40,604 nt of DNA from a virus. Taxonomy: Duplodnaviria; Heunggongvirae; Uroviricota; Caudoviricetes. Below the pieces are notes generated by a model. The model had not been told where the DNA came from. It did no database searches and worked only from the letters and a program-made list of their open reading frames with translations. Shown here in pieces: positions 21,861 through 40,543 of the stretch. Position 1 is the first letter of the stretch. Each line of letters starts with the position of its first letter. Where the stretch lies: the IMG/VR virus record IMGVR_UViG_2778261089_000001, positions 1-40,604 of that record; one strand, given 5' to 3'. The translations under genes were made by a program, and so were the position numbers.

Positions 21861-22382
21861 ATGATGAACAAATTAGCACGCTTATTATTAACAGCCAGCT
21901 CAATTGCACCTGTTTGCGCAACTCTATTTTTTATTGGATATGTAAAAGATACGGTTTGGCTGATGCAATATAGCTTATGCGTTGGCATAGCAAGTTGGTT
22001 ATTAGCAATAGGCCTGATTCAATATGCTGAGAAACAACTTGAACCTCTGACAAAAAATATTAGTTCAGTTTCTCCCGCTAACAAAGAAGTAACTAATTAT
22101 TTCTTAAGCTATTTATTCCCTCTCCTAGGAACAGATTCTATTGCTGAAAATAAAGCATATGCGTTATTCTTTTATTTATCATTGTTATTTTACATCAGCT
22201 TTTCCGAGAACTATAACTTTAACCCAGTATTGTCACTTATCGGTTATAAATTTTACGAAGCTGAAGATGACACCGGCGTAGGTTTTGTATTGATTTCTAA
22301 ATCAGTTATTACTGATATTAAAGATATCAAATTTACAGTTATTCAATTAACAGACTACACATTTCTACATGTTAAAGGATAA
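21861..22382 (+). CDS. Four-TM membrane protein (candidate KwaA-like component)
   Basis: 173 aa with four hydrophobic helices; AAAGGA RBS; AT-rich; opposite strand to flanking phage genes. Confidence 0.6.
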   Translation: MMNKLARLLLTASSIAPVCATLFFIGYVKDTVWLMQYSLCVGIASWLLAIGLIQYAEKQLEPLTKNISSVSPANKEVTNYFLSYLFPLLGTDSIAENKAYALFFYLSLLFYISFSENYNFNPVLSLIGYKFYEAEDDTGVGFVLISKSVITDIKDIKFTVIQLTDYTFLHVKG

Positions 22383-22387
22383 TAACC

Positions 22388-23272
22388 ATGGCACTTTTTG
22401 CAGTAATAGATAATACAATTGCAACGAGAATTGTTAGAGTCGAACTTGATGCAACAGCAAGTACTTCTGTTACGGCCATTTTCCAACAACAGCGTCAATA
22501 TTTTGAAAGTCATCATAACAATATGATACCATTCTATGCCGGTTATACACCAAAACATAGTGAGTGTTTTGAAATACAAAACTTTACTGATTCTGCACGC
22601 CTGATTGACGCAGTCAATAGGCCTACCGCCGTGCCTATCTGGGATCCTAGCCAAATTGATATTGGTTATATTAAAGCATTATTTGTTGGTGTTGACGCGC
22701 CAGCAAACCCCAATATTATTGCACTACAAACTTTCAACAAAAAACAAATCTTAGATACCTCAAAATCATTCTTTGGAAAGCTTTTTGCAAGCAAAACTAC
22801 CTTTAGTAAAGCTAATAGCATCGGTTTTAATGTTGATGATAAACTAGTTGCAATAATTATCAATGATACAATACGATTTAAGAGTTTCTTTAATCTAAGA
22901 AGCATTTTTGACATGTCGTCCTATTTTTCTGCTGCTACTGACCAAGAACTTAATGCATTTAGTCAACTTAGTGTATTTTCTACTCCCCAAGGTTTTGATC
23001 TAAAATCCGTTGCAGATACAGTGATAAGAAATAAAGTAACACTAATAAATCAGACTGGGATGCTAACACCCCAAAATATGTCAAAGTTTAAATCCGAAGC
23101 TGCTAAAGTTAATTTCCCCTTACAAACCATAATAGTTGGCGGTGTTGAGAAAATTGTCATGCCTTCATCAAAAAAAGAAATAAAAGCCCTTCTTGACTTT
23201 CTTGAGGAAGACATTTGGGTTTCTGGAATAAGTGGAAGACGCTTTAAATCGAATTCAAAGCGCCCAATATAA
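22388..23272 (+). CDS. Soluble 294-aa protein co-transcribed with the TM protein (candidate KwaB/DUF4868-like)
   Basis: Starts 5 bp after upstream stop with AAAGGA RBS; AT-rich; no recognised catalytic motif. Confidence 0.6.
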   Translation: MALFAVIDNTIATRIVRVELDATASTSVTAIFQQQRQYFESHHNNMIPFYAGYTPKHSECFEIQNFTDSARLIDAVNRPTAVPIWDPSQIDIGYIKALFVGVDAPANPNIIALQTFNKKQILDTSKSFFGKLFASKTTFSKANSIGFNVDDKLVAIIINDTIRFKSFFNLRSIFDMSSYFSAATDQELNAFSQLSVFSTPQGFDLKSVADTVIRNKVTLINQTGMLTPQNMSKFKSEAAKVNFPLQTIIVGGVEKIVMPSSKKEIKALLDFLEEDIWVSGISGRRFKSNSKRPI

Positions 23273-23658: not shown

Positions 23659-24654
23659 TCAGGCCAGTACGCCAATTGCCAGCGCACGATCGATAAAACG
23701 AAATATCAGCTCCAGCTGAGAGCCATACTTCTCTTCAAATGCCACGGTATCCGCATGCAGCTCGTCGTGATGCTTTCTGCACAAAGGCAACACAAAGAGG
23801 TCATGCGCTTTTGTACCCATTCCACCCTGACCGTGGCCTATCAGATGGTGGGGATCATCAGCAGGCTTTCCACAACATGCACACGGCTGTGTCTTAACCC
23901 AGCGCGTGTACTTTTCATTAACCCAGCGGCGGCTTTTTGGGCGTAACATAAAAGACTCCGGCGACTCCGGATCCACTTTCAGCGCCAGCACCTTTTTCGC
24001 TTTATCCTGGATGATGCTGGTGGCAGGAACCGAAGGCACAAGGTCACTTTCCCGGGTGACAGACGGCACAACAGGCTTCGGTAATCTCAGTGCCTTACGG
24101 GCTGCACTTTCCGGTAAGGCATCCGCCAGGTCATTACGAACCAGCCACCAGCACAGTTCCGGCATTGTCACAACGTGACTATCATCAAAACCGAGATCCC
24201 GACGCACAACAGACAATACCCAGCGGGCACAGTTATCCGTTGCCATTGATTCCAGCCGTTCCGTGAACTGATCGCGCAACTGGTTATCGCAGTGCCAGCA
24301 CAGACGGATTGCGCCCGGCGCGTGCCGCATTGTGGTCATGTTCTCGCTGTGCCAGTCGGAATGAGGCCACTGACAGCCCTTTTCACGAAGTAACCAGCTT
24401 TCAAGACATTCCACGCCACCAGCACGACGGATCACTGCCTCATTGCGGAACACGCCCCGAACGGCAGGATCATCCGCCAGCGGTTGTGATACCGCCGGAA
24501 CGGCACCACTGGCAAAAGATGAATAACGTTCCGGCTCAGGCTCCAGCAGGACACGCCCCTGCATAAACAGGGGCATCAGCTCTGAACCTGGCCTGAACAA
24601 TACGATCCCCATACGCGGGGCAATTTCAGGAGTCAGTAGTGCTCTCACGGTCAC
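23659..24654 (-). CDS. DUF968-like phage protein with C-terminal HNH-type Cys/His motif
   Basis: 331 aa; C-terminus CACCGKP...HHLIGHG...CRKHHDELH. Confidence 0.45.
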   Translation of the reverse strand: MTVRALLTPEIAPRMGIVLFRPGSELMPLFMQGRVLLEPEPERYSSFASGAVPAVSQPLADDPAVRGVFRNEAVIRRAGGVECLESWLLREKGCQWPHSDWHSENMTTMRHAPGAIRLCWHCDNQLRDQFTERLESMATDNCARWVLSVVRRDLGFDDSHVVTMPELCWWLVRNDLADALPESAARKALRLPKPVVPSVTRESDLVPSVPATSIIQDKAKKVLALKVDPESPESFMLRPKSRRWVNEKYTRWVKTQPCACCGKPADDPHHLIGHGQGGMGTKAHDLFVLPLCRKHHDELHADTVAFEEKYGSQLELIFRFIDRALAIGVLA

Positions 24655-25862: not shown

Positions 25863-26185
25863 ACTTTCAGGCCTCTCTCATGTAACCAGTGGGTTGCACG
25901 CAGCCTGGCGTTTTCCTCACCGGCAAGCAGTGAGCGGATAATCCCGACCGCCTCGCTGTCGTCGTCCTTCACCGCGGTATGAAGAGTGATACCCCGGGCC
26001 ACGCCACGCTTTATCGTGATGACGCCTTTTTTCTCCAGTGCGCGAAGATGTTCCACCGCTGCATTCACTGAACGGTATCCCAGCATGGTTGCCACCTCCT
26101 GATTGGTTGGCGGGAAGCCACGTTCTTTCTGGTAAGAAATCAGCATATCCAGCACCTGCTGCTGGCATTGAGTTAACGTCGTCAT
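25859..26185 (-). CDS. LexA-like DNA-binding domain protein
   Basis: N-terminus aligns with LexA winged-helix region (MLGYRSVNAAVEHLRALEKKGVI). Confidence 0.65.
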   Translation of the reverse strand: MTTLTQCQQQVLDMLISYQKERGFPPTNQEVATMLGYRSVNAAVEHLRALEKKGVITIKRGVARGITLHTAVKDDDSEAVGIIRSLLAGEENARLRATHWLHERGLKV

Positions 26186-26868
26186 GCCGCCATCTCCCTG
26201 ACCAGTTTTTCCGCCTGCTGGCGAACCTGCGCCAGAAACGCCTCACCACATGCCTCAAGTTCATCGCGCCCGATGTAGCTGATTGCCGGTCCCTTCCAGG
26301 TCTTATCGAAAACAGCAATAGCACCAGCGAAGAAAGCGCCTGTCGGCACCTGCTTCTCGTCTTTCGGGATAAACCAGACAGGCAGTTCAAAACCAATACG
26401 CCCGCGAATAAAAGCAATATGATCTGCATCTTCCGGCCACCACACTTCGCTGGTGGCAGCTTTGATCAGGAAAACATAGCGCCCGCCTTTATCACGCATG
26501 GCACTGGCATGCTTCATGATGTAACGCATGCCGGTGATGTATTGCCCCTCATGCTGACTGGCGCGGCTGTATGGGGGATTACCAAAGGCAGCACCTTTAA
26601 GCTCCGCAAGACGTTCTGACCAGTCATGCGCCAGCGCGTTGTCTTCCGCCGTGTAATACGCGGCACATTTGGCGTTATCACCGTCAGTAAAAAGATCCAG
26701 AACAAACGGGCCAAACAGAGTGTTAATTCCCCAGAAAATGTTATCCGGCGTGCGCCACTGATCGCCCACTTCCTTCAGTTCATGGGCTGGTTTGTTCCGT
26801 AGTTCCACCAGCGCCTGGCAATATTTATTACTCATTAAGCCCCCACGTAATTCCCTGACAGATACCAC
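26182..26868 (-). CDS. Phage N6-adenine DNA methyltransferase (phage Dam family)
   Basis: 228 aa with NPPY catalytic motif (AAFGNPPYS). Confidence 0.8.
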   Translation of the reverse strand: MVSVRELRGGLMSNKYCQALVELRNKPAHELKEVGDQWRTPDNIFWGINTLFGPFVLDLFTDGDNAKCAAYYTAEDNALAHDWSERLAELKGAAFGNPPYSRASQHEGQYITGMRYIMKHASAMRDKGGRYVFLIKAATSEVWWPEDADHIAFIRGRIGFELPVWFIPKDEKQVPTGAFFAGAIAVFDKTWKGPAISYIGRDELEACGEAFLAQVRQQAEKLVREMAA

Positions 26869-31159: not shown

Positions 31160-31283
31160 GGAGAAACTAACCGCCCCTACGGGGGCATTTATGGAAATGT
31201 AATTAACTCAATAATCGCCGGACGGTGAGGGCTTCCTTTTACCCGAGTTCAGCGCGGTGCAGCGCATATACGTGGAGAACAAA

Positions 31284-31820
31284 ATGTCATTTATTAAAAC
31301 TTTTTCCGGGAAGCATTTCTATTATGACAGGATAAATAAAAACGACATCGTTATTAACGATATCGCGGTTTCCCTTTCAAATATCTGTCGCTTTGCAGGA
31401 CATCTTTCACACTTCTACAGTGTCGCCCAACATGCGGTGCTTTGCAGCCAGTTGGTGCCGCAGGAATTTGCTTTTGAAGCTTTAATGCATGATGCAACAG
31501 AAGCGTATTGCCAGGACATCCCCGCACCACTGAAACGACTTCTTCCTGACTATAAACGGATGGAAGAAAAAATAGACGCCGTAATCCGTGAGAAATACGG
31601 GTTACCTCCTGTTATGAGCACGCCAGTGAAATATGCCGATCTCATCATGCTGGCAACCGAACGCCGCGATCTCGGGCTTGATGATGGCTCTTTCTGGCCT
31701 GTGCTGGAAGGTATCCCGGCAACAGAGATGTTCAACGTGATTCCACTGGCTCCAGGCCATGCCTACGGGATGTTTATGGAACGCTTTAACGAATTATCGG
31801 AGTTACGCAAATGCGCATGA
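31284..31820 (+). CDS. HD-domain phosphohydrolase-like protein
   Basis: H...HD motif (HFYSVAQHAV...MHDATEAY); start taken at MSFIKT. Confidence 0.5.
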   Translation: MSFIKTFSGKHFYYDRINKNDIVINDIAVSLSNICRFAGHLSHFYSVAQHAVLCSQLVPQEFAFEALMHDATEAYCQDIPAPLKRLLPDYKRMEEKIDAVIREKYGLPPVMSTPVKYADLIMLATERRDLGLDDGSFWPVLEGIPATEMFNVIPLAPGHAYGMFMERFNELSELRKCA

Positions 31821-32432: not shown

Positions 32433-32651
32433 GTGGAGAAACATATGCTGAACCTCGATTGTGTTCCAATCTCAACTTATTGCAAAGAAACTGGCGAAAC
32501 TCCTGAAGCAATAAACAAACGTGTACAGCGCGGTGTTTGGCGTGAAGGTGTTCAGGTTTTAAAGGTTGAAGGCGTTAAGGAGAGGTGGATTGACCTTAGT
32601 GAGGTTGCAAAATGGGCCAGACAAAACTGCTCAAACTACCGCGCGGCGTAA
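32433..32651 (+). CDS. xis: Excisionase-like protein
   Basis: 72-aa basic protein immediately upstream of and overlapping integrase. Confidence 0.6.
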   Translation: MEKHMLNLDCVPISTYCKETGETPEAINKRVQRGVWREGVQVLKVEGVKERWIDLSEVAKWARQNCSNYRAA

Positions 32652-33778
32652 CAATCAGGAAACACCGCCAGGGCGAAACGATCAATATAACTTTCACCTA
32701 CAAAGGAGTTAAATGTCGTGAGCCTCTTTCCAATCTGGAAGTAACACCAAAGAACATTAAATACGCCGAGCGTACACTCGGCGAAATCCATAATAAGATC
32801 GAAAAGGGAACATTCATTTATGCAGAATATTTTCCCCGTTCTGCTCGTTTGAAAATTTTTGGTAATGCTGCTGCAGGCAAAACGGTAAAGATGTACCTGG
32901 ACGAATATCTTGAAATCTGCGAAACAAGAAAACTTTCACCCTCTACGATTGGTGGCTATAAAAAATGCCGTAGGGCGTTAGCCTCACTTCACATTTGCCC
33001 TGCAAGTGAATTAACACCAGCAACCCTGAAAGCGTGGATTCAAAGCCAGAAAACAACCTTAAAAACCATTCGCAACCAGTTATCTTTCCTGCGGTCAGCA
33101 CTTGATGAAGCCGTGACCGATGGGGTACTTCAAATTAACCCCGTATCGTTAGTAACAGCTTCGCGCTACCAAAGTGATAAGTCAGAAGCAGAAAGCAGCT
33201 ATGTGGTTGATCCGCTATCACCAGCAGAAGTTGATGCATTACTAGCAGCAGCCGGAAACAAACAATGGGAAAATCTGTTCCGGTTCGCTATACATACAGG
33301 CCTGCGTAGTTCTGAACTATGTGCCCTTCGATGGCGTGATATCGACTTTGTTGGAAAAACTGCCCATGTCCAGAGCGCAAGTGTTGTCGGTGTTATCAAA
33401 GGAACAAAGACAAAAGCCGGTACTCGTAAAGTTGAACTGACAGAAGAGGCTATGTTGGCGCTGATAAATCAGAAGCCATTTACATTCATGAAGGATGCTA
33501 CTGTCTTTGAAGATCCAAAGACCAATAAGCCTTGGGCAAGTGCTGATGCAATCAGGAAAAAAGCATGGGTGCCAACATTGCGAAAAGCAGGTATTCGTTA
33601 CAGAAACCCATATCAAACCAGGCATACATTCGCCACCAGCCATATCAGTCGGGGTGCAAATTTGTTTTGGCTTGCGGCTCAAATGGGTCATAAAGGGCCA
33701 GAAATGCTTTTCAGACACTATGGCTCATATTTGAAGGAATATGATGGACAAGCAAGCCTGAAGAAGATAAAAATATAA
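32612..33778 (+). CDS. int: Tyrosine integrase (phage integrase family)
   Basis: 388 aa; arm-binding-type N-terminus, C-terminal catalytic region with R...HxxR...Y pattern. Confidence 0.9.
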   Translation: MGQTKLLKLPRGVTIRKHRQGETINITFTYKGVKCREPLSNLEVTPKNIKYAERTLGEIHNKIEKGTFIYAEYFPRSARLKIFGNAAAGKTVKMYLDEYLEICETRKLSPSTIGGYKKCRRALASLHICPASELTPATLKAWIQSQKTTLKTIRNQLSFLRSALDEAVTDGVLQINPVSLVTASRYQSDKSEAESSYVVDPLSPAEVDALLAAAGNKQWENLFRFAIHTGLRSSELCALRWRDIDFVGKTAHVQSASVVGVIKGTKTKAGTRKVELTEEAMLALINQKPFTFMKDATVFEDPKTNKPWASADAIRKKAWVPTLRKAGIRYRNPYQTRHTFATSHISRGANLFWLAAQMGHKGPEMLFRHYGSYLKEYDGQASLKKIKI

Positions 33779-33835
33779 CCCATGTCTGAACTGTTGGCCA
33801 CCATTTGTGGCCATTTCATTGAACAAGGTACACAC

Positions 33836-35569
33836 ATGGCAAATCAAATAACTAAACTAAAAAAAATAAACGTTGTAAAATTCCGGGGGCTAAAAAATAT
33901 AAATATAGAATTTGGAACTCGCCTAACTGTTATTTGTGGGAAAAATGGCACATCTAAATCAACAATTCTTGGTATTATCGCCCAGATTTTCAGTTTTACA
34001 AAAGACTTATCTAAGAATCCTGAGATTGATTTAACACAATATAAGACATTAACTAATGGCAACTTCAAGTCAGCTTTCAGTGAGCATTTTAGACTCTCAG
34101 AACAATTTGATACTGCTGGTTCAATGGACGTCAAGATTAGTGTCTATGATGGAGCATTTAACAAACATCTTGAAAAACTAACATTGGGTCTATACAGTTC
34201 CAGCGACAGGGATAAATCAAGACCAATAGTCAGGGGTAATGATTCTATCCCGGGGAAAAACCAAAGTAGAAACGTTACCCATCCTGTTATTTTTTTAAGC
34301 TTAGCCAGGCTTCTCCCTATTACCCTTCGTACTGATTACTCAACAAGAGATGTTGAGTATATCAAGAAAAATGCTGATGATATAAGAATAATGAGTAATC
34401 AACTCTTATTAAAAAACAATGGATGTTCAGTAACAGCCACAAAAGGGATTATTGATTCAATGGTTGTACATGGTGATAATTATGACTACCAATCAGTTTC
34501 TGTTGGTGAAGATAATGTAGGACAATTAATCCAAGCAATATTTTCGTTTAAAAGGCTGAAAGAACTGTATGATGACTATCATGGAGGTATTTTATTAATT
34601 GATGAAGCGGATGCAGGTCTCTTCCCTGCGGCTCAGTTAGAATTAATTAACATCCTAACCAAAGCTGCTAAAAAATATGATTTGCAAATAATCATGACAT
34701 CTCATTCCCCACTAATAATTGAAGATGTTTTCAATCGTTCCAAACAAGACCCCAAAGGCTTCAAAACAATCTACCTAACAGATACTTATGGTGATATAAA
34801 AACAAAAGATAACTTATCATGGGCTGATATAAATGCGGATTTACATGTTGAGACGGTAAAAATCGATGATAAGATTAGTCTTCCAAAAGCTAACGTTTAT
34901 TTTGAAGATAAAGAAGGCTTTGATTTTTTCAAACAATTGATAACTGACAGAAGAATAAAAAAAATATTAAATCCATTAGGAAATATAAATATTAGCTGCT
35001 CTGCCATTTTGGATTTAATGGCAAGAAAAATCCCTGAATTTACAATTAAAAGTCTGGTGGTCTTAGACGGCGATGTTGCTCTAGATAACAGTGATAATGC
35101 AAAAAAAGCAAAAAAAGAGAAAAGCTTATGCTTACTTCCAAGCATCCTACCTCCAGACCAAATGATTTTCGAATTTTTATATAATTTACCTCCTGATGAT
35201 GTATATTGGAACAATACAAATAGGTTCACAAAAGCTGTATTTTTGAGAATAGCTAAAGATATAATCACATCATTAAAGATAGGTAACTACCCTATTAACT
35301 TACAAAACTTAATAGATAATTATAGAAAAGAAAATCAAAACCATGGTGGAACGGTTAGAAAACTTTTTAAAGATTTTGCACACACGCCTCAATTTCAGGC
35401 TCTAGTCAAAGGACGAGTTAAAAATAACCCATATCGATATTGGGTCAAGAAAAATCCTGAGCAATCTGATCGTTTCAGGAATGAACTAATAAAGAGCCTT
35501 AAAGTTATTATGACAAGTGGACATGGTGTTGATTCTGCTACCATCTCATCATATCTTTCAGATAACTAA
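33836..35569 (+). CDS. OLD-family-like ABC ATPase (Walker A GKNGTSKST, Walker B LLIDEADAG) with C-terminal Toprim-like region
   Basis: P-loop, D-loop and SHSP motifs; C-terminal EDKEG and VVLDGD acidic motifs; AT-rich; ORF track start at 33782. Confidence 0.65.
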   Translation: MANQITKLKKINVVKFRGLKNINIEFGTRLTVICGKNGTSKSTILGIIAQIFSFTKDLSKNPEIDLTQYKTLTNGNFKSAFSEHFRLSEQFDTAGSMDVKISVYDGAFNKHLEKLTLGLYSSSDRDKSRPIVRGNDSIPGKNQSRNVTHPVIFLSLARLLPITLRTDYSTRDVEYIKKNADDIRIMSNQLLLKNNGCSVTATKGIIDSMVVHGDNYDYQSVSVGEDNVGQLIQAIFSFKRLKELYDDYHGGILLIDEADAGLFPAAQLELINILTKAAKKYDLQIIMTSHSPLIIEDVFNRSKQDPKGFKTIYLTDTYGDIKTKDNLSWADINADLHVETVKIDDKISLPKANVYFEDKEGFDFFKQLITDRRIKKILNPLGNINISCSAILDLMARKIPEFTIKSLVVLDGDVALDNSDNAKKAKKEKSLCLLPSILPPDQMIFEFLYNLPPDDVYWNNTNRFTKAVFLRIAKDIITSLKIGNYPINLQNLIDNYRKENQNHGGTVRKLFKDFAHTPQFQALVKGRVKNNPYRYWVKKNPEQSDRFRNELIKSLKVIMTSGHGVDSATISSYLSDN

Positions 35570-35649
35570 TTGATTAAAAAGGGTTTTATGTGATGTCCAT
35601 AAAGCCCTTTTTTTTGATATACTCTAGATCTGACATTTAGAGGTATCAT

Positions 35650-36549
35650 ATGCGTTTTAACACCCCACTTCGCTATCCTGGCGGTAAAGGCAAGCTTGCA
35701 AATTTCATACTTCGGATTATTGAAGAAAATAATCTTTCGCCTATACATTATGCCGAACCATATGCTGGAGGGGCTGGCTTAGCATTGAAACTTTTACATT
35801 TAAATGCAGCTGAAAAAATCATCCTTAATGATATTAATATTTCTGTTTATGCTTTTTGGTACAGTGTATTAAATCATGCAGATCAATTATGTTCTTTAAT
35901 TGAAAGAACTGAAGTTACAATGGATGAATGGTTTAAGCAGAAAGATATAATTAATAATCCGAAAGACCATGATCTTTTAACAATTGGTTTCTCAACCTTT
36001 TTTCTCAATAGAACAAATCGTTCTGGAATATTAAAAGGTGGAGTAATTGGCGGTAAAAATCAAGAAGGAAAATGGAAGCTTGACGCTCGCTATAATAAGA
36101 GTGATTTGATTTCTCGAATCCATAAAATATCAGAAAATCGTCACAGAATAGATTTATATAACATGGATGCAATTGATTTCATTGAAAAAATAGTCATTCA
36201 ATTGCCACAAAACTCATTAACATATTTGGATCCACCTTATTACATAAAAGGTAAAGGTTTATATATCAACCATTATGATCATGATGATCATGTTAGGGTT
36301 GCAAAAGTCGTACAGAATAATATTAAAACGCCTTGGATTGTTTCTTACGATAACACTCCTGAGATCCAAGCTATGTATAAGACATCATCATTAGTATATG
36401 GAATAAACTACAGTGCTCAAGATCGGTACAAAGGATCTGAGGTAATGTTCTTCAGTGAACGGTTGAAAATCTTTAAAACAGATGATCCAACTAAGGTAAA
36501 AGCACCTGTATTTAAAAGAGGATATGTTGACGACCACATCCAGACATAA
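35650..36549 (+). CDS. D12-class N6-adenine DNA methyltransferase (Dam-like)
   Basis: Motifs RYPGGK, EPYAGGAG and catalytic DPPY; AT-rich. Confidence 0.85.
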   Translation: MRFNTPLRYPGGKGKLANFILRIIEENNLSPIHYAEPYAGGAGLALKLLHLNAAEKIILNDINISVYAFWYSVLNHADQLCSLIERTEVTMDEWFKQKDIINNPKDHDLLTIGFSTFFLNRTNRSGILKGGVIGGKNQEGKWKLDARYNKSDLISRIHKISENRHRIDLYNMDAIDFIEKIVIQLPQNSLTYLDPPYYIKGKGLYINHYDHDDHVRVAKVVQNNIKTPWIVSYDNTPEIQAMYKTSSLVYGINYSAQDRYKGSEVMFFSERLKIFKTDDPTKVKAPVFKRGYVDDHIQT

Positions 36550-36621: not shown

Positions 36622-36654
36622 CGGACTCGGGTTCAACTCCCGCCAGCTCCACCA
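36622..36654 (+). other. ssrA: tmRNA (ssrA) 3'-end fragment = attachment-site core at prophage boundary
   Basis: CGGACTCGGGTTCAACTCCCGCCAGCTCCACCA matches the ssrA 3' acceptor/T-arm; no full ssrA upstream (MTase gene occupies that space). Confidence 0.8.
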
Positions 36655-36859: not shown

Positions 36860-38101
36860 ATGGCAAGACAAACCAAACCTCTATCCGTTAAAGAAATAGA
36901 ATCAGCCAAACCCAAGGAGGCGGACTACGTTCTCTATGATGGCGATGGCCTTGAGCTACTCATTAAATCCAGCGGGAGTAAAATCTGGCAGTTTCGCTAC
37001 ATTCGCCCTGTCACCAAGAAACGAGCAAAGAAGAGCATAGGCTCCTACCCGTCAGTTACCCTTGCCGATGCCAGAAACTACCGTGCAGAGTCCCGCTCAC
37101 TACTGGCTAAACAGATCGATCCGCAGGAACATCAGCAAGAACAATTGCGCAGTTCGCTGGAAGCCAAAACCAACACTTTCCAACTCGTAGCTGAACGTTG
37201 GTGGAATGTGAAGAAAGCCAGTGTGACAGAGGACTATGCGGAAGATATCTGGCGCTCTCTTGAAAGAGACGTCTTTCCTGCGATTGGCGACGTTAGCGTT
37301 ACAGATATTAAAGCTCATACACTGGTTCAGGCCGTACAACCGGTTCAGGCCAGAGGAGCACTGGAAACTGTTCGTCGCCTGTGCCAACGTATTAATGAGG
37401 TCATGATCTATGCCCAGAACACAGGGCTGATTGATGCTGTTCCCAGCGTTAATATCGGTAAAGCCTTCGAGAAGCCTCAGAAAAAGAACATGCCCAGCAT
37501 TCGACCGGATCAGCTACCTCAGTTAATGCAGACGATGCGAACAGCCAGCATTAGCCTTTCCACACGCTGCCTGTTCATGTGGCAACTTCTTACTATTACC
37601 CGCCCTGCCGAAGCGGCTGAAGCTCTCTGGGAAGAGGTAGACATAGAAGCGCGAGAGTGGAAGATTCCTGCAGCACGCATGAAAATGAACCGCGACCATA
37701 CTGTTCCATTGTCAGATGAAGCAATTGCGATACTAGAGATGATGAAGCCGTTAAGTGGAAATCGAGAATTTATCTTTCCCAGCCGCATCAAGCCAAACCA
37801 GCCGATGAACAGTCAGACCGTAAACGCATCGCTAAAACGCGCAGGTTTTGGTGGGGTGCTCGTTTCACACGGCCTGCGATCTATCGCCAGTACAGCCCTT
37901 AATGAGCAGGGATTTCCACCTGATGTTATTGAGGCTGCACTTGCTCATGTGGATAAGAATGAGGTTCGTCGTGCGTATAACCGTAGTGATTATCTTGAGC
38001 AGCGACGGCCTATGATGCAGTGGTGGGCTGATTTTGTGATGGCTGCAGATCACGGTAGTATGATTGAAGGAGGGATAAAGGCAATGCGGTTAGTTGGATG
38101 A
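36860..38101 (+). CDS. intA: Tyrosine integrase, P4/CP4-57 IntA-like
   Basis: 413 aa; N-terminus MARQTKPLS...YDGDGLELLIKSSGSKIWQFRY typical of P4-type integrases. Confidence 0.85.
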   Translation: MARQTKPLSVKEIESAKPKEADYVLYDGDGLELLIKSSGSKIWQFRYIRPVTKKRAKKSIGSYPSVTLADARNYRAESRSLLAKQIDPQEHQQEQLRSSLEAKTNTFQLVAERWWNVKKASVTEDYAEDIWRSLERDVFPAIGDVSVTDIKAHTLVQAVQPVQARGALETVRRLCQRINEVMIYAQNTGLIDAVPSVNIGKAFEKPQKKNMPSIRPDQLPQLMQTMRTASISLSTRCLFMWQLLTITRPAEAAEALWEEVDIEAREWKIPAARMKMNRDHTVPLSDEAIAILEMMKPLSGNREFIFPSRIKPNQPMNSQTVNASLKRAGFGGVLVSHGLRSIASTALNEQGFPPDVIEAALAHVDKNEVRRAYNRSDYLEQRRPMMQWWADFVMAADHGSMIEGGIKAMRLVG

Positions 38102-38239: not shown

Positions 38240-40543
38240 CTATTTTAAATCAGCCTTTGCGGCTCGAATATCTGCGTTTTTTGCTGAGTATTCCCATTCG
38301 TCAGCGATTCTAAATAGCATTGCAGAAGTACGGACGCAGTGGGGCATTGAATTTGCCCATTCTCGGTACTGCTCAGCTAATATCCTTTCTTGGTTTCCAC
38401 CTTCGTAACGCATACGAGCAAATACCCCCCTTTTATTGTACCTACCAATTTGTATACCTTGCTCTAACTCATCAGAAGATAATATTTCAATGATGTGCCG
38501 AATTGCTTCATGTGGCCAGGAATTATCTACTGAGCTATTAGGGGCATGTGCCAGAATTTTTCCTATTACATGATCAGTGATTTCTTGGCGATGATGCAAT
38601 TTTGCTAAATGGCGTACATTCTCACACCAATCTTCAAGTTTATCTTGATCAATTTCATTGTCTATCTGCCCTGGTAGTATTCGTAATTTTTCAAGTAATC
38701 TGTATATAGAAGTAGCTCTTTTAACTTCCAACTCCGATGGTTCTGTTTGTTCATCTTCGTCACTACGATATACAATACATATTGCTTCTATAAAAACCTC
38801 TGGCTTTTTCATCATTAGACGATGCAGGATAAGTGGCTCATCGCTATCCGGAAAACAAGGCAAGTAGGTCATTTCTTTAAATGCCAAATCTGTTTCAGAA
38901 ACATCGTTACGTTGTTTGAGTTCATCAAAAACTTTTTTTACATAGTACGATAGCATTGTATCAAATTGGATATCCTGGCTATTTATTTCTTTAACGACTA
39001 TATCTAGAAGATATAAAAGTGTTGTAGATGGAATCTCAGAAAGGCGTTGATTTGCTGATATAATAGCAGCAAGACCCCGGCCCCTTTCTATATATTTATC
39101 CATAAGAACAAATAAATCCGAAGTTTTACCCATCATTGCAATGGGTTGTTTTTGCAACCAATATTTTTCGTTGATGTTATCTTCAAACCCTTCAATAATG
39201 CTCCATATCTCTTGTGAGTCTCTTAACGATGCTAAGATTTTCCCAGCCCTATCAGGGGTAATTTTAAACTGTTTAAAATACACTTTTATTTTATTAAGCC
39301 ATTCAGCACCAAAGCATTCAACACCATATTGCATTAACAACCCACAAACTTCATCAATATTTTTTTTGTTGTTAATAAGCATTACAAACAAATCATTTAA
39401 TTTTTCTTCATCCAACGAGAGTGCTGATATATGCCTTGCTGCAATAAAAACATTATTAACTTGTTGAAAAAGGTCTTTCACCCCAGACAAACCTAAAGTA
39501 AAGTATATTTCCCTAAGTTTTTCACTTCGCATTTCTTCGACAGAAGAAAAAATTCCGCCAGCATTTTCAATTGACTCTTCAATATCAGAATCCCAATCAT
39601 TGAAAATCCATAAACTGGCTCTAACCATGTCAATTGGTTTATAATTATCAAGTATTTTCGCTATTTTTTCCATAGACTCAAATTTAAATGCCCAGTTCGC
39701 ATCTGAATATTTTTTATGGCGAGAATACTCATGACGCAAAGCCTCCCATACGATGAACTGATCCTCTTCAGTTTGTTGAGAAAGGCAAAGTTCAAGATGA
39801 GAAAGTGTTTCATCTATTGCATTCTCAGGGAATGAGCTTAAATGAGAGATTAGGATTTCCCATCTTGTTGGGAGTATACCTGCAAGTTTAATTGCTTCTT
39901 GGATAATAAAGATTTGCCCCTCCCAAACAACGCCCCACGTTAGTTTTTCTACATCTTTATCCGACTCTCTGAACTTCATTTTTTGGTTTTGATCAGAGGT
40001 ATCATGGGAGCGAGGAAGGAGATTTTGTAACAAACTCCACCCAATACTAGGAACAATAGTGATAATTTTTTTTATAATTGCATTTCTAACTTTTACTGGT
40101 GCCCATGTATTAGGAGACCATGCCAGAAAAATGGTTCTTAAACTATTAAGAGGGCGATCTGAGTAAGTTCCTCCGGGATCTATTACAGCGAGTTTTGCAA
40201 GACAGATTGCAGCGCGTAATAGATATGTTTGTTCCCAAGCCAAGGCTTCCAATGCCCATTTTAATCCATGATAATGACTTCGAGGAGTTAACAGCCCTTT
40301 ATCTTCATTGAATATTGGAGCAATCATTTCCCCATTGCCCTTAAGCAATTGCTCAAGGGCATCAAGGAAAGGGCCAGGGGCAGCTTCTGCCAGCAGCGGA
40401 AGTTGATCTCGCAAACTAACAAATAGTCGATGGTCGTTAGCAAGTCCCGGAATACTCTGAACTATTTTGTTAACAAAATCTTGGGGTGTCATACCAGTAA
40501 CCCGGAATTCGGCCTGTTCATGTAATATGATCTTACCCAGCAA
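38240..40543 (-). CDS. Large hypothetical protein (767 aa), AT-rich island cargo
   Basis: Long uninterrupted ORF in low-GC DNA; helix-rich composition, no recognised motif. Confidence 0.6.
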   Translation of the reverse strand: MLGKIILHEQAEFRVTGMTPQDFVNKIVQSIPGLANDHRLFVSLRDQLPLLAEAAPGPFLDALEQLLKGNGEMIAPIFNEDKGLLTPRSHYHGLKWALEALAWEQTYLLRAAICLAKLAVIDPGGTYSDRPLNSLRTIFLAWSPNTWAPVKVRNAIIKKIITIVPSIGWSLLQNLLPRSHDTSDQNQKMKFRESDKDVEKLTWGVVWEGQIFIIQEAIKLAGILPTRWEILISHLSSFPENAIDETLSHLELCLSQQTEEDQFIVWEALRHEYSRHKKYSDANWAFKFESMEKIAKILDNYKPIDMVRASLWIFNDWDSDIEESIENAGGIFSSVEEMRSEKLREIYFTLGLSGVKDLFQQVNNVFIAARHISALSLDEEKLNDLFVMLINNKKNIDEVCGLLMQYGVECFGAEWLNKIKVYFKQFKITPDRAGKILASLRDSQEIWSIIEGFEDNINEKYWLQKQPIAMMGKTSDLFVLMDKYIERGRGLAAIISANQRLSEIPSTTLLYLLDIVVKEINSQDIQFDTMLSYYVKKVFDELKQRNDVSETDLAFKEMTYLPCFPDSDEPLILHRLMMKKPEVFIEAICIVYRSDEDEQTEPSELEVKRATSIYRLLEKLRILPGQIDNEIDQDKLEDWCENVRHLAKLHHRQEITDHVIGKILAHAPNSSVDNSWPHEAIRHIIEILSSDELEQGIQIGRYNKRGVFARMRYEGGNQERILAEQYREWANSMPHCVRTSAMLFRIADEWEYSAKNADIRAAKADLK

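Follow-up and report, generated by a model that had tools for sequence, protein, structure and literature searches.

Positions 33836–36549 of the virus record IMGVR_UViG_2778261089_000001, the whole 40,604-nt stretch of which is here called the window and supplies all coordinates, probably constitute a two-gene defense module keyed to DNA methylation and carried as a moron by a phiNP-like temperate phage that is integrated in ssrA. The first gene encodes an ATP-binding cassette (ABC) ATPase joined to a Toprim domain, and the second an N6-adenine DNA methyltransferase (methylase) of the PD-lambda-5_B family. This reading, which is built on sequence comparison, draws on the domain identities of the two proteins, their conserved catalytic residues, the linkage of their genes across phyla, their co-divergence, and the interchange of ATPase and ParB/HEPN partners beside the methylase; from these we infer its further elements, namely self-marking by methylation, the target of the nuclease, and protection against phages. 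An earlier, sequence-only reading of the same DNA had proposed that an OLD-like ATPase, possibly a nuclease, and a methyltransferase form a cargo module resembling a restriction-modification (RM) or abortive infection (Abi) system, and the in-silico parts of that proposal, i.e., the domains, the linkage, and the position, hold.

The cargo slot and its two gene products

The genes of this part of the window follow one another on the + strand in the order tyrosine integrase, ABC ATPase, D12 methyltransferase, ssrA attachment (att) core, and P4-type integrase, and the features of the region are as follows:

32612–33778 (+): phage tyrosine integrase (int), the left border of the cargo slot (Pfam Arm-DNA-bind_2, 4.4e-23; Phage_integrase, 3.6e-16)
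33795–33813 (+): terminator-like hairpin and T-rich tract after the int stop, inside the 5′ extension of a 595-aa reading of the ATPase gene
33836–35569 (+): 577-aa ABC ATPase–Toprim gene, OLD superfamily architecture, HEC-04/IbfA-like
35576–35612 (+): terminator-like hairpin with a 15-bp stem, then a T run, between the ATPase and methylase genes
35615–35623 (+): candidate extended −10 promoter, TG-n-TATACT, a reading of the sequence
35650–36549 (+): 299-aa alpha-class (D12) N6-adenine DNA methyltransferase of the PD-lambda-5_B family (PF02086; PADLOC PD-Lambda-5_B)
36630–36654 (+): 25-bp att core, the ssrA 3′ end and right border of the prophage, recognized by identity to phiNP attP
36860–38101 (+): second integrase, P4-type, downstream of the att core

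The att core, GGTTCAACTCCCGCCAGCTCCACCA, reads as the reverse complement of the 25-bp attP that has been published for Citrobacter phage phiNP (PMC6456863), and matches to it are present in the att regions of numerous phages that integrate at ssrA. As this 25-mer is both the ssrA 3′ end and the phiNP attP, the original placement of the cargo between int, on its left, and the ssrA att site, on its right, is correct. A complete transfer-messenger RNA gene was not found within the window by ARAGORN or Rfam, just the ssrA 3′ fragment at att. The window is Escherichia coli chromosome, in which the prophage is followed by the ssrA-linked island. In E. coli GN4143, which is 99.9% identical across the 4 kb around the cargo, the 32612–33778 integrase is annotated as a site-specific integrase. 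Both cargo genes are AT-rich, as had been claimed, with a GC content of 0.33 against 0.52 over the first 32 kb (window positions 1–32000), while int stands at 0.44.

Of 5426 complete E. coli genomes, 85 have the module at an identity of at least 95%; enteroaggregative E. coli 042 and ST131 JJ1886 are examples. A 47%-identical version occupies the equivalent att–int slot of an e14-like prophage at icd (L083; L-numbers are the labels of the compared loci), and another version of the ATPase–methylase pair lies within an integrative and conjugative element (ICE; L082). Among sequenced phages the cargo is shared by phiNP alone, at 86% nucleotide identity; this is an inducible phage that lysogenizes mrr+ E. 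coli K-12 (PMC6456863). The phiNP sequence OR565852 contains an intact 293-aa methylase open reading frame (ORF; L085 4814–5695, approximately 43926–44807) that is left unannotated downstream of the annotated AAA ATPase.

The ORF of the window ATPase can be read as 33782–35569 (595 aa) or as 33836–35569 (577 aa). Homologues from unrelated contexts all start at MA(N)xITKL, i.e., at the methionine of the 577-aa form, the RefSeq annotation takes the same start, and the hairpin that follows int falls inside the extension; the true start is therefore 33836, the 595-aa reading is ruled out as an over-extension, and the length of 578–595 aa first given for the protein has to be corrected to 577 aa. 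The protein is divided into an ABC ATPase region (approximately aa 1–315), a Toprim core (approximately aa 345–450), and a variable helical tail (approximately aa 450–577). Pfam hidden Markov models of AAA_15 (1.6e-15) and AAA_21 (1.2e-11), as well as AAA_23 and SMC_N, match aa 26–314. An alignment of 30 homologues with 49–90% identity defines the following invariant motifs, which include the Walker A, Walker B, and SHSP motifs picked out by the sequence-only reading:

33938–33964 (+): Walker A, GKNGTSKST, aa 35–43
aa 222–230 (+): signature-like motif of ABC type, SVGEDNVGQ
34592–34618 (+): Walker B and D-loop, LLIDEADAG, aa 253–261, with D256 and E257 invariant
aa 288–292 (+): H-loop, TSHSP
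34898–34915 (+): Toprim glutamate motif, YFEDKE (YFED at aa 355–358; E357, D358), aligning to the HEC-04-like VY.ED.EA
35060–35077 (+): Toprim DxD motif, VLDGDV (LDGD at aa 410–413; D411, D413), aligning to the HEC-04-like IVLDGD

In full, the invariant C-terminal residues are Y355-F-E357-D358, D411-x-D413, L434-P435, and P440-D441-Q442.

The assignment of the C-terminal region to the Toprim fold is an indirect one. Compared as a whole with the PADLOC HEC-04 model, the window protein matches at 1.4e-16, in a stretch restricted to aa 26–71; a profile of the C-terminus found nothing among the PDB sequences, the isolated C-terminal model (predicted local distance difference test score, pLDDT, 88.3) gave weak Foldseek matches, none below E = 0.6, and hhalign against a single ATPase–Toprim sequence aligned the DGD motif alone, with a probability of 4%. 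The identity was settled, after direct scans had failed, by the profile of 36 bridging relatives. When the C-terminal profile was searched against 1.84 billion representative proteins, it recovered proteins of about 500–530 aa covering the first 150 or so profile positions; in the sample taken, 36 of 36 match HEC-04 and 34 of 36 match ATPase-Toprim_I-B. Aligned with these HEC-04-like relatives by hhalign, the C-terminus of the window family scores a probability of 100% (E 7e-40, 203 columns), with YFED and LDGD lining up with the ED and DGD motifs. Within the family itself, 11 of 20 C-termini match the HEC-04 model directly, although that of the window does not, and the relatives in L082, L083, and L087 (other E. 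coli loci and Clostridium) match ATPase-Toprim_I-B across the Toprim region. On the strength of this profile–profile homology through bridging relatives, the C-terminal domain is a Toprim domain. The expectation of an acidic, Toprim-like C-terminus is thus borne out as to the Toprim fold and its invariant E...DxD residues, but the term acidic is inaccurate, as the region is net basic (D+E 12.3%, K+R 15%) and acidic only in its catalytic motifs.

The last 125 or so residues form the helical tail, which is specific to the clade of approximately 570-aa proteins; the distinctive C-terminal domain defines 454 representative protein clusters. About half of the allelic differences among E. coli, Citrobacter, and Salmonella fall in this tail (aa 450–577, positions 35184–35566), and the methylase next to the variable-tail ATPase has 98% nucleotide identity in most E. 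coli copies. This distribution of differences suggests that the tail may be a fast-evolving specificity or sensor region, or the product of mosaicism.

As regards overall fold, the full-length AlphaFold2 model of the protein (pLDDT 88.5) has its top Foldseek matches in GajA (8u7i, 9.6e-12) and the Thermus scotoductus OLD protein (6p74, 1.2e-11), with the retron Eco8 OLD effector also among the closest folds (E approximately 1e-11), and these alignments span 550–670 columns. The PADLOC GajA models align to a stretch of about 50 residues around the Walker motifs rather than over the full length, the PADLOC Old model is absent among the 25 best matches, and the NCBIfam matches all lie far under their cut-offs. 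The label OLD-like is apt in that the protein is an ABC ATPase–Toprim with its nearest folds in GajA and the Thermus OLD, but the protein falls outside the named OLD classes and the PADLOC Old and GajA models. The OLD classes 1–4 (P2 Old, GajA, the retron Eco8 effector, and PARIS AriA/AriB) share the combination of ABC ATPase and Toprim, and the P2 old gene is prophage-borne, as is the window gene. These classes are defined by genetic context, i.e., a lone gene, a UvrD-like helicase, a retron, or AriB (PMC10568477), whereas the context of the window ATPase is a D12 methylase, which belongs to no recognized class. An assignment to Gabija, PARIS, or Septu was rejected: the PADLOC matches are limited to the ATPase motifs, and GajB, AriB, and PtuB are all missing from the neighborhood. 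Apart from int and att, the locus contains just the ATPase and the methylase, without the UvrD-like helicase GajB of Gabija.

The nearest characterized relatives of the window ATPase are HEC-04 and IbfA, in which an ABC ATPase is likewise followed by Toprim in one polypeptide. HEC-04 is a single-protein defense against T4 and T5 that is toxic when induced, and its protection is lost both in a mutant of the Walker A lysine and in an E319A/D375A/D377A mutant (Payne et al. 2024; bioRxiv 10.1101/2024.01.29.577857); the spacing from the glutamate to DxD is 56 residues in HEC-04 and 54 in the window protein. The two relatives have approximately 494–520 aa and act alone, without a methylase, IbfA being a single gene of an IncI1 plasmid, whereas the window protein has 577 aa, possesses the additional fast-evolving tail, and belongs to a clade that is always methylase-linked.

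The second gene product matches PF02086 at 5.8e-20 (72.5 bits against a cut-off of 22) and has motif I (EPYAGGAG, aa 36–43, positions 35755–35778) and DPPY (aa 194–197, positions 36229–36240) intact, both being invariant in the family, so that the description of a Dam-like methyltransferase with a DPPY motif after the ATPase is accurate. Its best family assignment is PADLOC PD-Lambda-5_B (7.2e-124, 282 of 291 model positions), the PADLOC Type II methyltransferase model MTase_II matches at 1e-104, and the nearest solved structure, 7m6b, is found only at 1.4e-17; no homologue with an established recognition sequence came to light. An identity as a mere orphan GATC Dam, the counter-case that had been raised at the outset, is rejected, since the protein scores 56.2 bits against TIGR00571 (dam), for which the cut-off is 114.85, belongs to the PD-lambda-5 family, and is strictly linked to the ATPase. 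The second, unrelated adenine methyltransferase noticed at 26182–26868 is also real: it lies on the − strand and belongs to the phage Dam family (PF05869, 1.1e-45).

Between the two genes there are 80 bases, in the window as in its close enterobacterial relatives. The hairpin at 35576–35612 is conserved, with base changes that preserve pairing, in L168, L249, phiNP (L085), L002, and L169, and a TGnTAnAAT-like element stands at the position equivalent to the TG-n-TATACT element in more distant enterobacterial loci; a scan for −35/−10 consensus sequences did not call the element at 35615–35623. The spacer is thus a candidate for a terminator with an extended −10 promoter behind it, an arrangement that would allow independent expression of the methylase.

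Linkage of the genes and exchange of partners

The association of the two genes extends far beyond the enterobacteria. In an ATPase-centered scan, with each species represented by a single genome, 80 loci were recovered, which belong to Gamma-, Beta-, Alpha-, and Deltaproteobacteria, Bacteroidota, Mycobacterium, Listeria, and Acidobacteria, and 78 of these contain a methylase homologue, while the remaining two end at a contig edge right past the ATPase; the methylase therefore adjoins the ATPase in all informative species-level loci (78/78). In a related set of intact pairs, 73 of 80 have the ATPase followed by the methylase on one strand, most with frames that touch or overlap, the gaps being −14 to +2 bases, and the pairwise identities of the two proteins are correlated (r 0.80, Mantel p 0.001). 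Even ATPases at 29–31% identity, in Vibrio phage ValB1MD-2 and in a prophage region of Clostridium butyricum, adjoin a Dam-like methylase, and the shorter HEC-04-like relatives are mixed in this respect, one having a methylase neighbor and one not. Taken as comparative genomic evidence, these patterns indicate that ATPase and methylase are functionally linked, beyond adjacency.

The linkage bears directly on the alternative that the two genes are independent cargo which merely travels together, comprising a self-sufficient Abi ATPase–Toprim of the HEC-04, IbfA, or P2 Old kind and an orphan phage methylase that would protect phage DNA from host restriction or tune gene expression. Such independence would agree with the ability of HEC-04 to defend as a single gene, with the occurrence of IbfA as a single plasmid gene, with a 506-aa relative, P0307, that has no methylase neighbor, with the terminator-like hairpin and possible promoter that separate the methylase from the ATPase, and with the presence in the same prophage of another Dam of orphan type (26182–26868). 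We nevertheless consider it quite improbable, given that the pair is kept in every informative locus across phyla, mostly in abutting or overlapping frames, that its members co-diverge, and that the methylase family is the obligate partner of PD-lambda-5 and nearly always has a ParB-type or ATPase-type neighbor.

The last of these points comes from a methylase-centered scan of 160 metagenomic and viral loci, in which PD-lambda-5-type methylases almost never occur without one neighbor or the other: the neighbor is ParB-like (PD-lambda-5_A) in 76 loci, an ABC ATPase–Toprim in 45, and something else in 26, mostly beside remote methylases outside the family, while 10 loci lack sufficient flanking sequence and 3 lack a called methylase ORF. 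In seven loci (L135, L139, L145, L147, L148, L178, and L179) ParB, methylase, and ATPase occur together; the methylase stands in the middle in six of these, the order in L179 being ATPase, ParB, methylase. On a rough neighbor-joining tree of the methylases there are about 14 changes of partner type, compared with about 56 expected under label shuffling, so the partners are mostly inherited with the methylase, yet have been repeatedly exchanged. The same methylase family is found beside another restriction-type partner in L196. Family members also occur beside a Druantia DruE-like helicase (E = 0; L132 69–3845) and between an Abi_2 protein and a 522-aa ATPase–Toprim, which the methylase precedes (L252 767–4569).

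The closest known system is PD-lambda-5, with which the module has solely the methylase in common. PD-lambda-5, an experimentally validated E. coli defense of the ParB type, comes from ECOR7, is described as "ParB/HEPN, methyltransferase", and protects against nearly all phages tested; its cloning called for a host from which the mrr region had been removed, a requirement that implies activity of its methylase (PMC9519451). Both are two-gene modules in a prophage cargo slot, with an effector gene followed by a D12 methylase of the same family, and in metagenomes the ParB effector of the one and the ATPase of the other alternate, and sometimes co-occur, beside the methylase. The effectors themselves differ, PD-lambda-5_A being a 501-aa ParB-N/HEPN protein and that of the window an ABC ATPase–Toprim. 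Comparison with a bona fide PD-lambda-5 locus, from the P2 hotspot of E. coli 3359 (L084), makes this plain: on PD-Lambda-5_A the ParB-N protein of that locus scores 5e-168, and on PD-Lambda-5_B the methylase beside it scores 1.4e-121, this methylase being 51% identical to that of the window, whereas no similarity was detected between the window ATPase and the L084 ParB protein, and PD-Lambda-5_A is absent among the 25 best PADLOC matches of the ATPase (E up to 4e-12). A Type II RM system provides a further parallel, in that nuclease and methylase form a two-gene operon and the methylase matches the Type II model; it differs in that the candidate nuclease of the window is an ATP-dependent Toprim enzyme and not one of the PD-(D/E)XK, HNH, GIY-YIG, or PLD type.

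In the words of its authors (Vassallo et al. 2022), PD-lambda-5 is an RM+Abi system that has been compacted into a prophage form (PMC9519451), and this description lends itself to another explanation of the window pair, in which the ATPase–Toprim would act as a guard that monitors the methylase or its product and unleashes a suicidal nuclease once a phage blocks methylation, for instance with DNA mimics or an S-adenosylmethionine lyase, by analogy with PARIS, which fires when restriction is inhibited. In PARIS and P2 Old, ABC ATPases of the OLD type respond to phage proteins or to DNA structures, and tRNA is cleaved (PMC11464382); the report of tRNA cleavage by PARIS AriB has been joined by one for P2 Old in a 2026 preprint. 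The three-gene loci, in which ParB/HEPN and ATPase–Toprim are joined around one methylase, also fit a guard. The two-gene form has no separate restriction endonuclease, which leaves only methylation itself to be guarded, and we regard this explanation as unlikely.

Other genes of the prophage and the adjoining island

The prophage contains a second AT-rich island (21861–23272, + strand, GC 0.33–0.37). It consists of an ORF of 173 aa, in which several hydrophobic segments resemble transmembrane ones, and, after this, a KwaB-like protein of 294 aa (32 bits on PF16162, cut-off 26.3); from these matches, the island is probably a Kiwa-like defense pair. Two ordinary genes of lambdoid or CPS-53-like prophages are also present, one for a DUF968/HNHc_6 protein (23659–24654, − strand, 5e-81) and one for a YfdR-type 5′-deoxynucleotidase-like protein (31257–31820, + strand). 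Adjoining the P4-type integrase of the ssrA island lies a 767-aa AT-rich ORF (38240–40543, − strand) with no match in Pfam, NCBIfam, or PADLOC; as GN4143 annotates this stretch as two hypothetical proteins, a frameshift difference is possible.

Proposed function and its meaning for OLD-type nucleases

In the mechanism that we propose for the methylation-keyed module, the methylase, expressed on its own behind the terminator from the candidate extended −10 promoter, would mark the DNA of the host and the prophage as self. The ATPase–Toprim protein would engage DNA in an ATP-dependent manner and detect DNA that lacks the methyl mark, whereupon the Toprim domain would cut either the incoming DNA, which would amount to restriction, or tRNA, which would halt translation and amount to abortive infection.

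Several observations weigh against this interpretation. The gene order puts the nuclease ahead of the methylase, with a terminator-like hairpin between them, which is awkward for a classical restriction system entering an unmethylated host, and the close ATPase relatives HEC-04, IbfA, and P0307 work or occur without a methylase, so the nuclease has no intrinsic need of a methylation signal; the nuclease-first gene order and the methylase-free active relatives together speak against restriction of a simple classical kind. The ability of phiNP to lysogenize an mrr+ K-12 host (PMC6456863) contrasts with the need of PD-lambda-5 for a deletion of the mrr region, a difference that could reflect weak expression of the methylase or a specificity of its own. 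Lastly, the C-terminal 257–275 residues of the window ATPase give nothing in direct Pfam and PADLOC scans, even at E = 10.

The mobility of the pair and its RM-like layout would also suit an addiction module, in which loss of the element dilutes methylation and a longer-lived nuclease kills the cell, thereby stabilizing the prophage, ICE, or island, with defense being secondary or absent. The pair is always on mobile elements (prophages at ssrA and icd, an ICE, and P2-like phages), and HEC-04 is toxic when induced; set against this are the many chromosomal loci of free-living bacteria that have no obvious mobile context, as far as an unsystematic look can tell, and the discovery of both of the nearest validated relatives via phage protection. 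Addiction is compatible with defense, and as a full account of the module we consider it improbable, about as much so as the co-transport of independent genes.

Both halves of the methylation-keyed module have characterized relatives, the methylase in PD-lambda-5 and the ATPase–Toprim in HEC-04, IbfA, and the OLD nucleases. The pairing itself corresponds to no system of PADLOC 2.0 and is unnamed in the searchable literature, subscription-only papers and REBASE being outside that search. To our knowledge, OLD-type ABC–Toprim proteins (P2 Old, Gabija, PARIS, retron effectors, and HEC-04) are currently regarded as sensing either phage proteins or aberrant DNA, without epigenetic discrimination of self from non-self. 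We tentatively suggest, as a serious possibility that falls somewhat short of probable, that the pair represents a widespread and unrecognized class of OLD-superfamily nucleases governed by DNA methylation, i.e., an ATP-dependent RM system with a Toprim endonuclease. If this is true, the PD-lambda-5-type methylase would be a portable self-marking cassette that takes a ParB/HEPN effector, an ABC–Toprim effector, or both, and the service of one methylase to two unrelated effectors would point to the methyl mark as their shared logic. This would help to account for the mechanism of PD-lambda-5, and the large methylase-locked clade would give the OLD-type family a methylation-gated branch.

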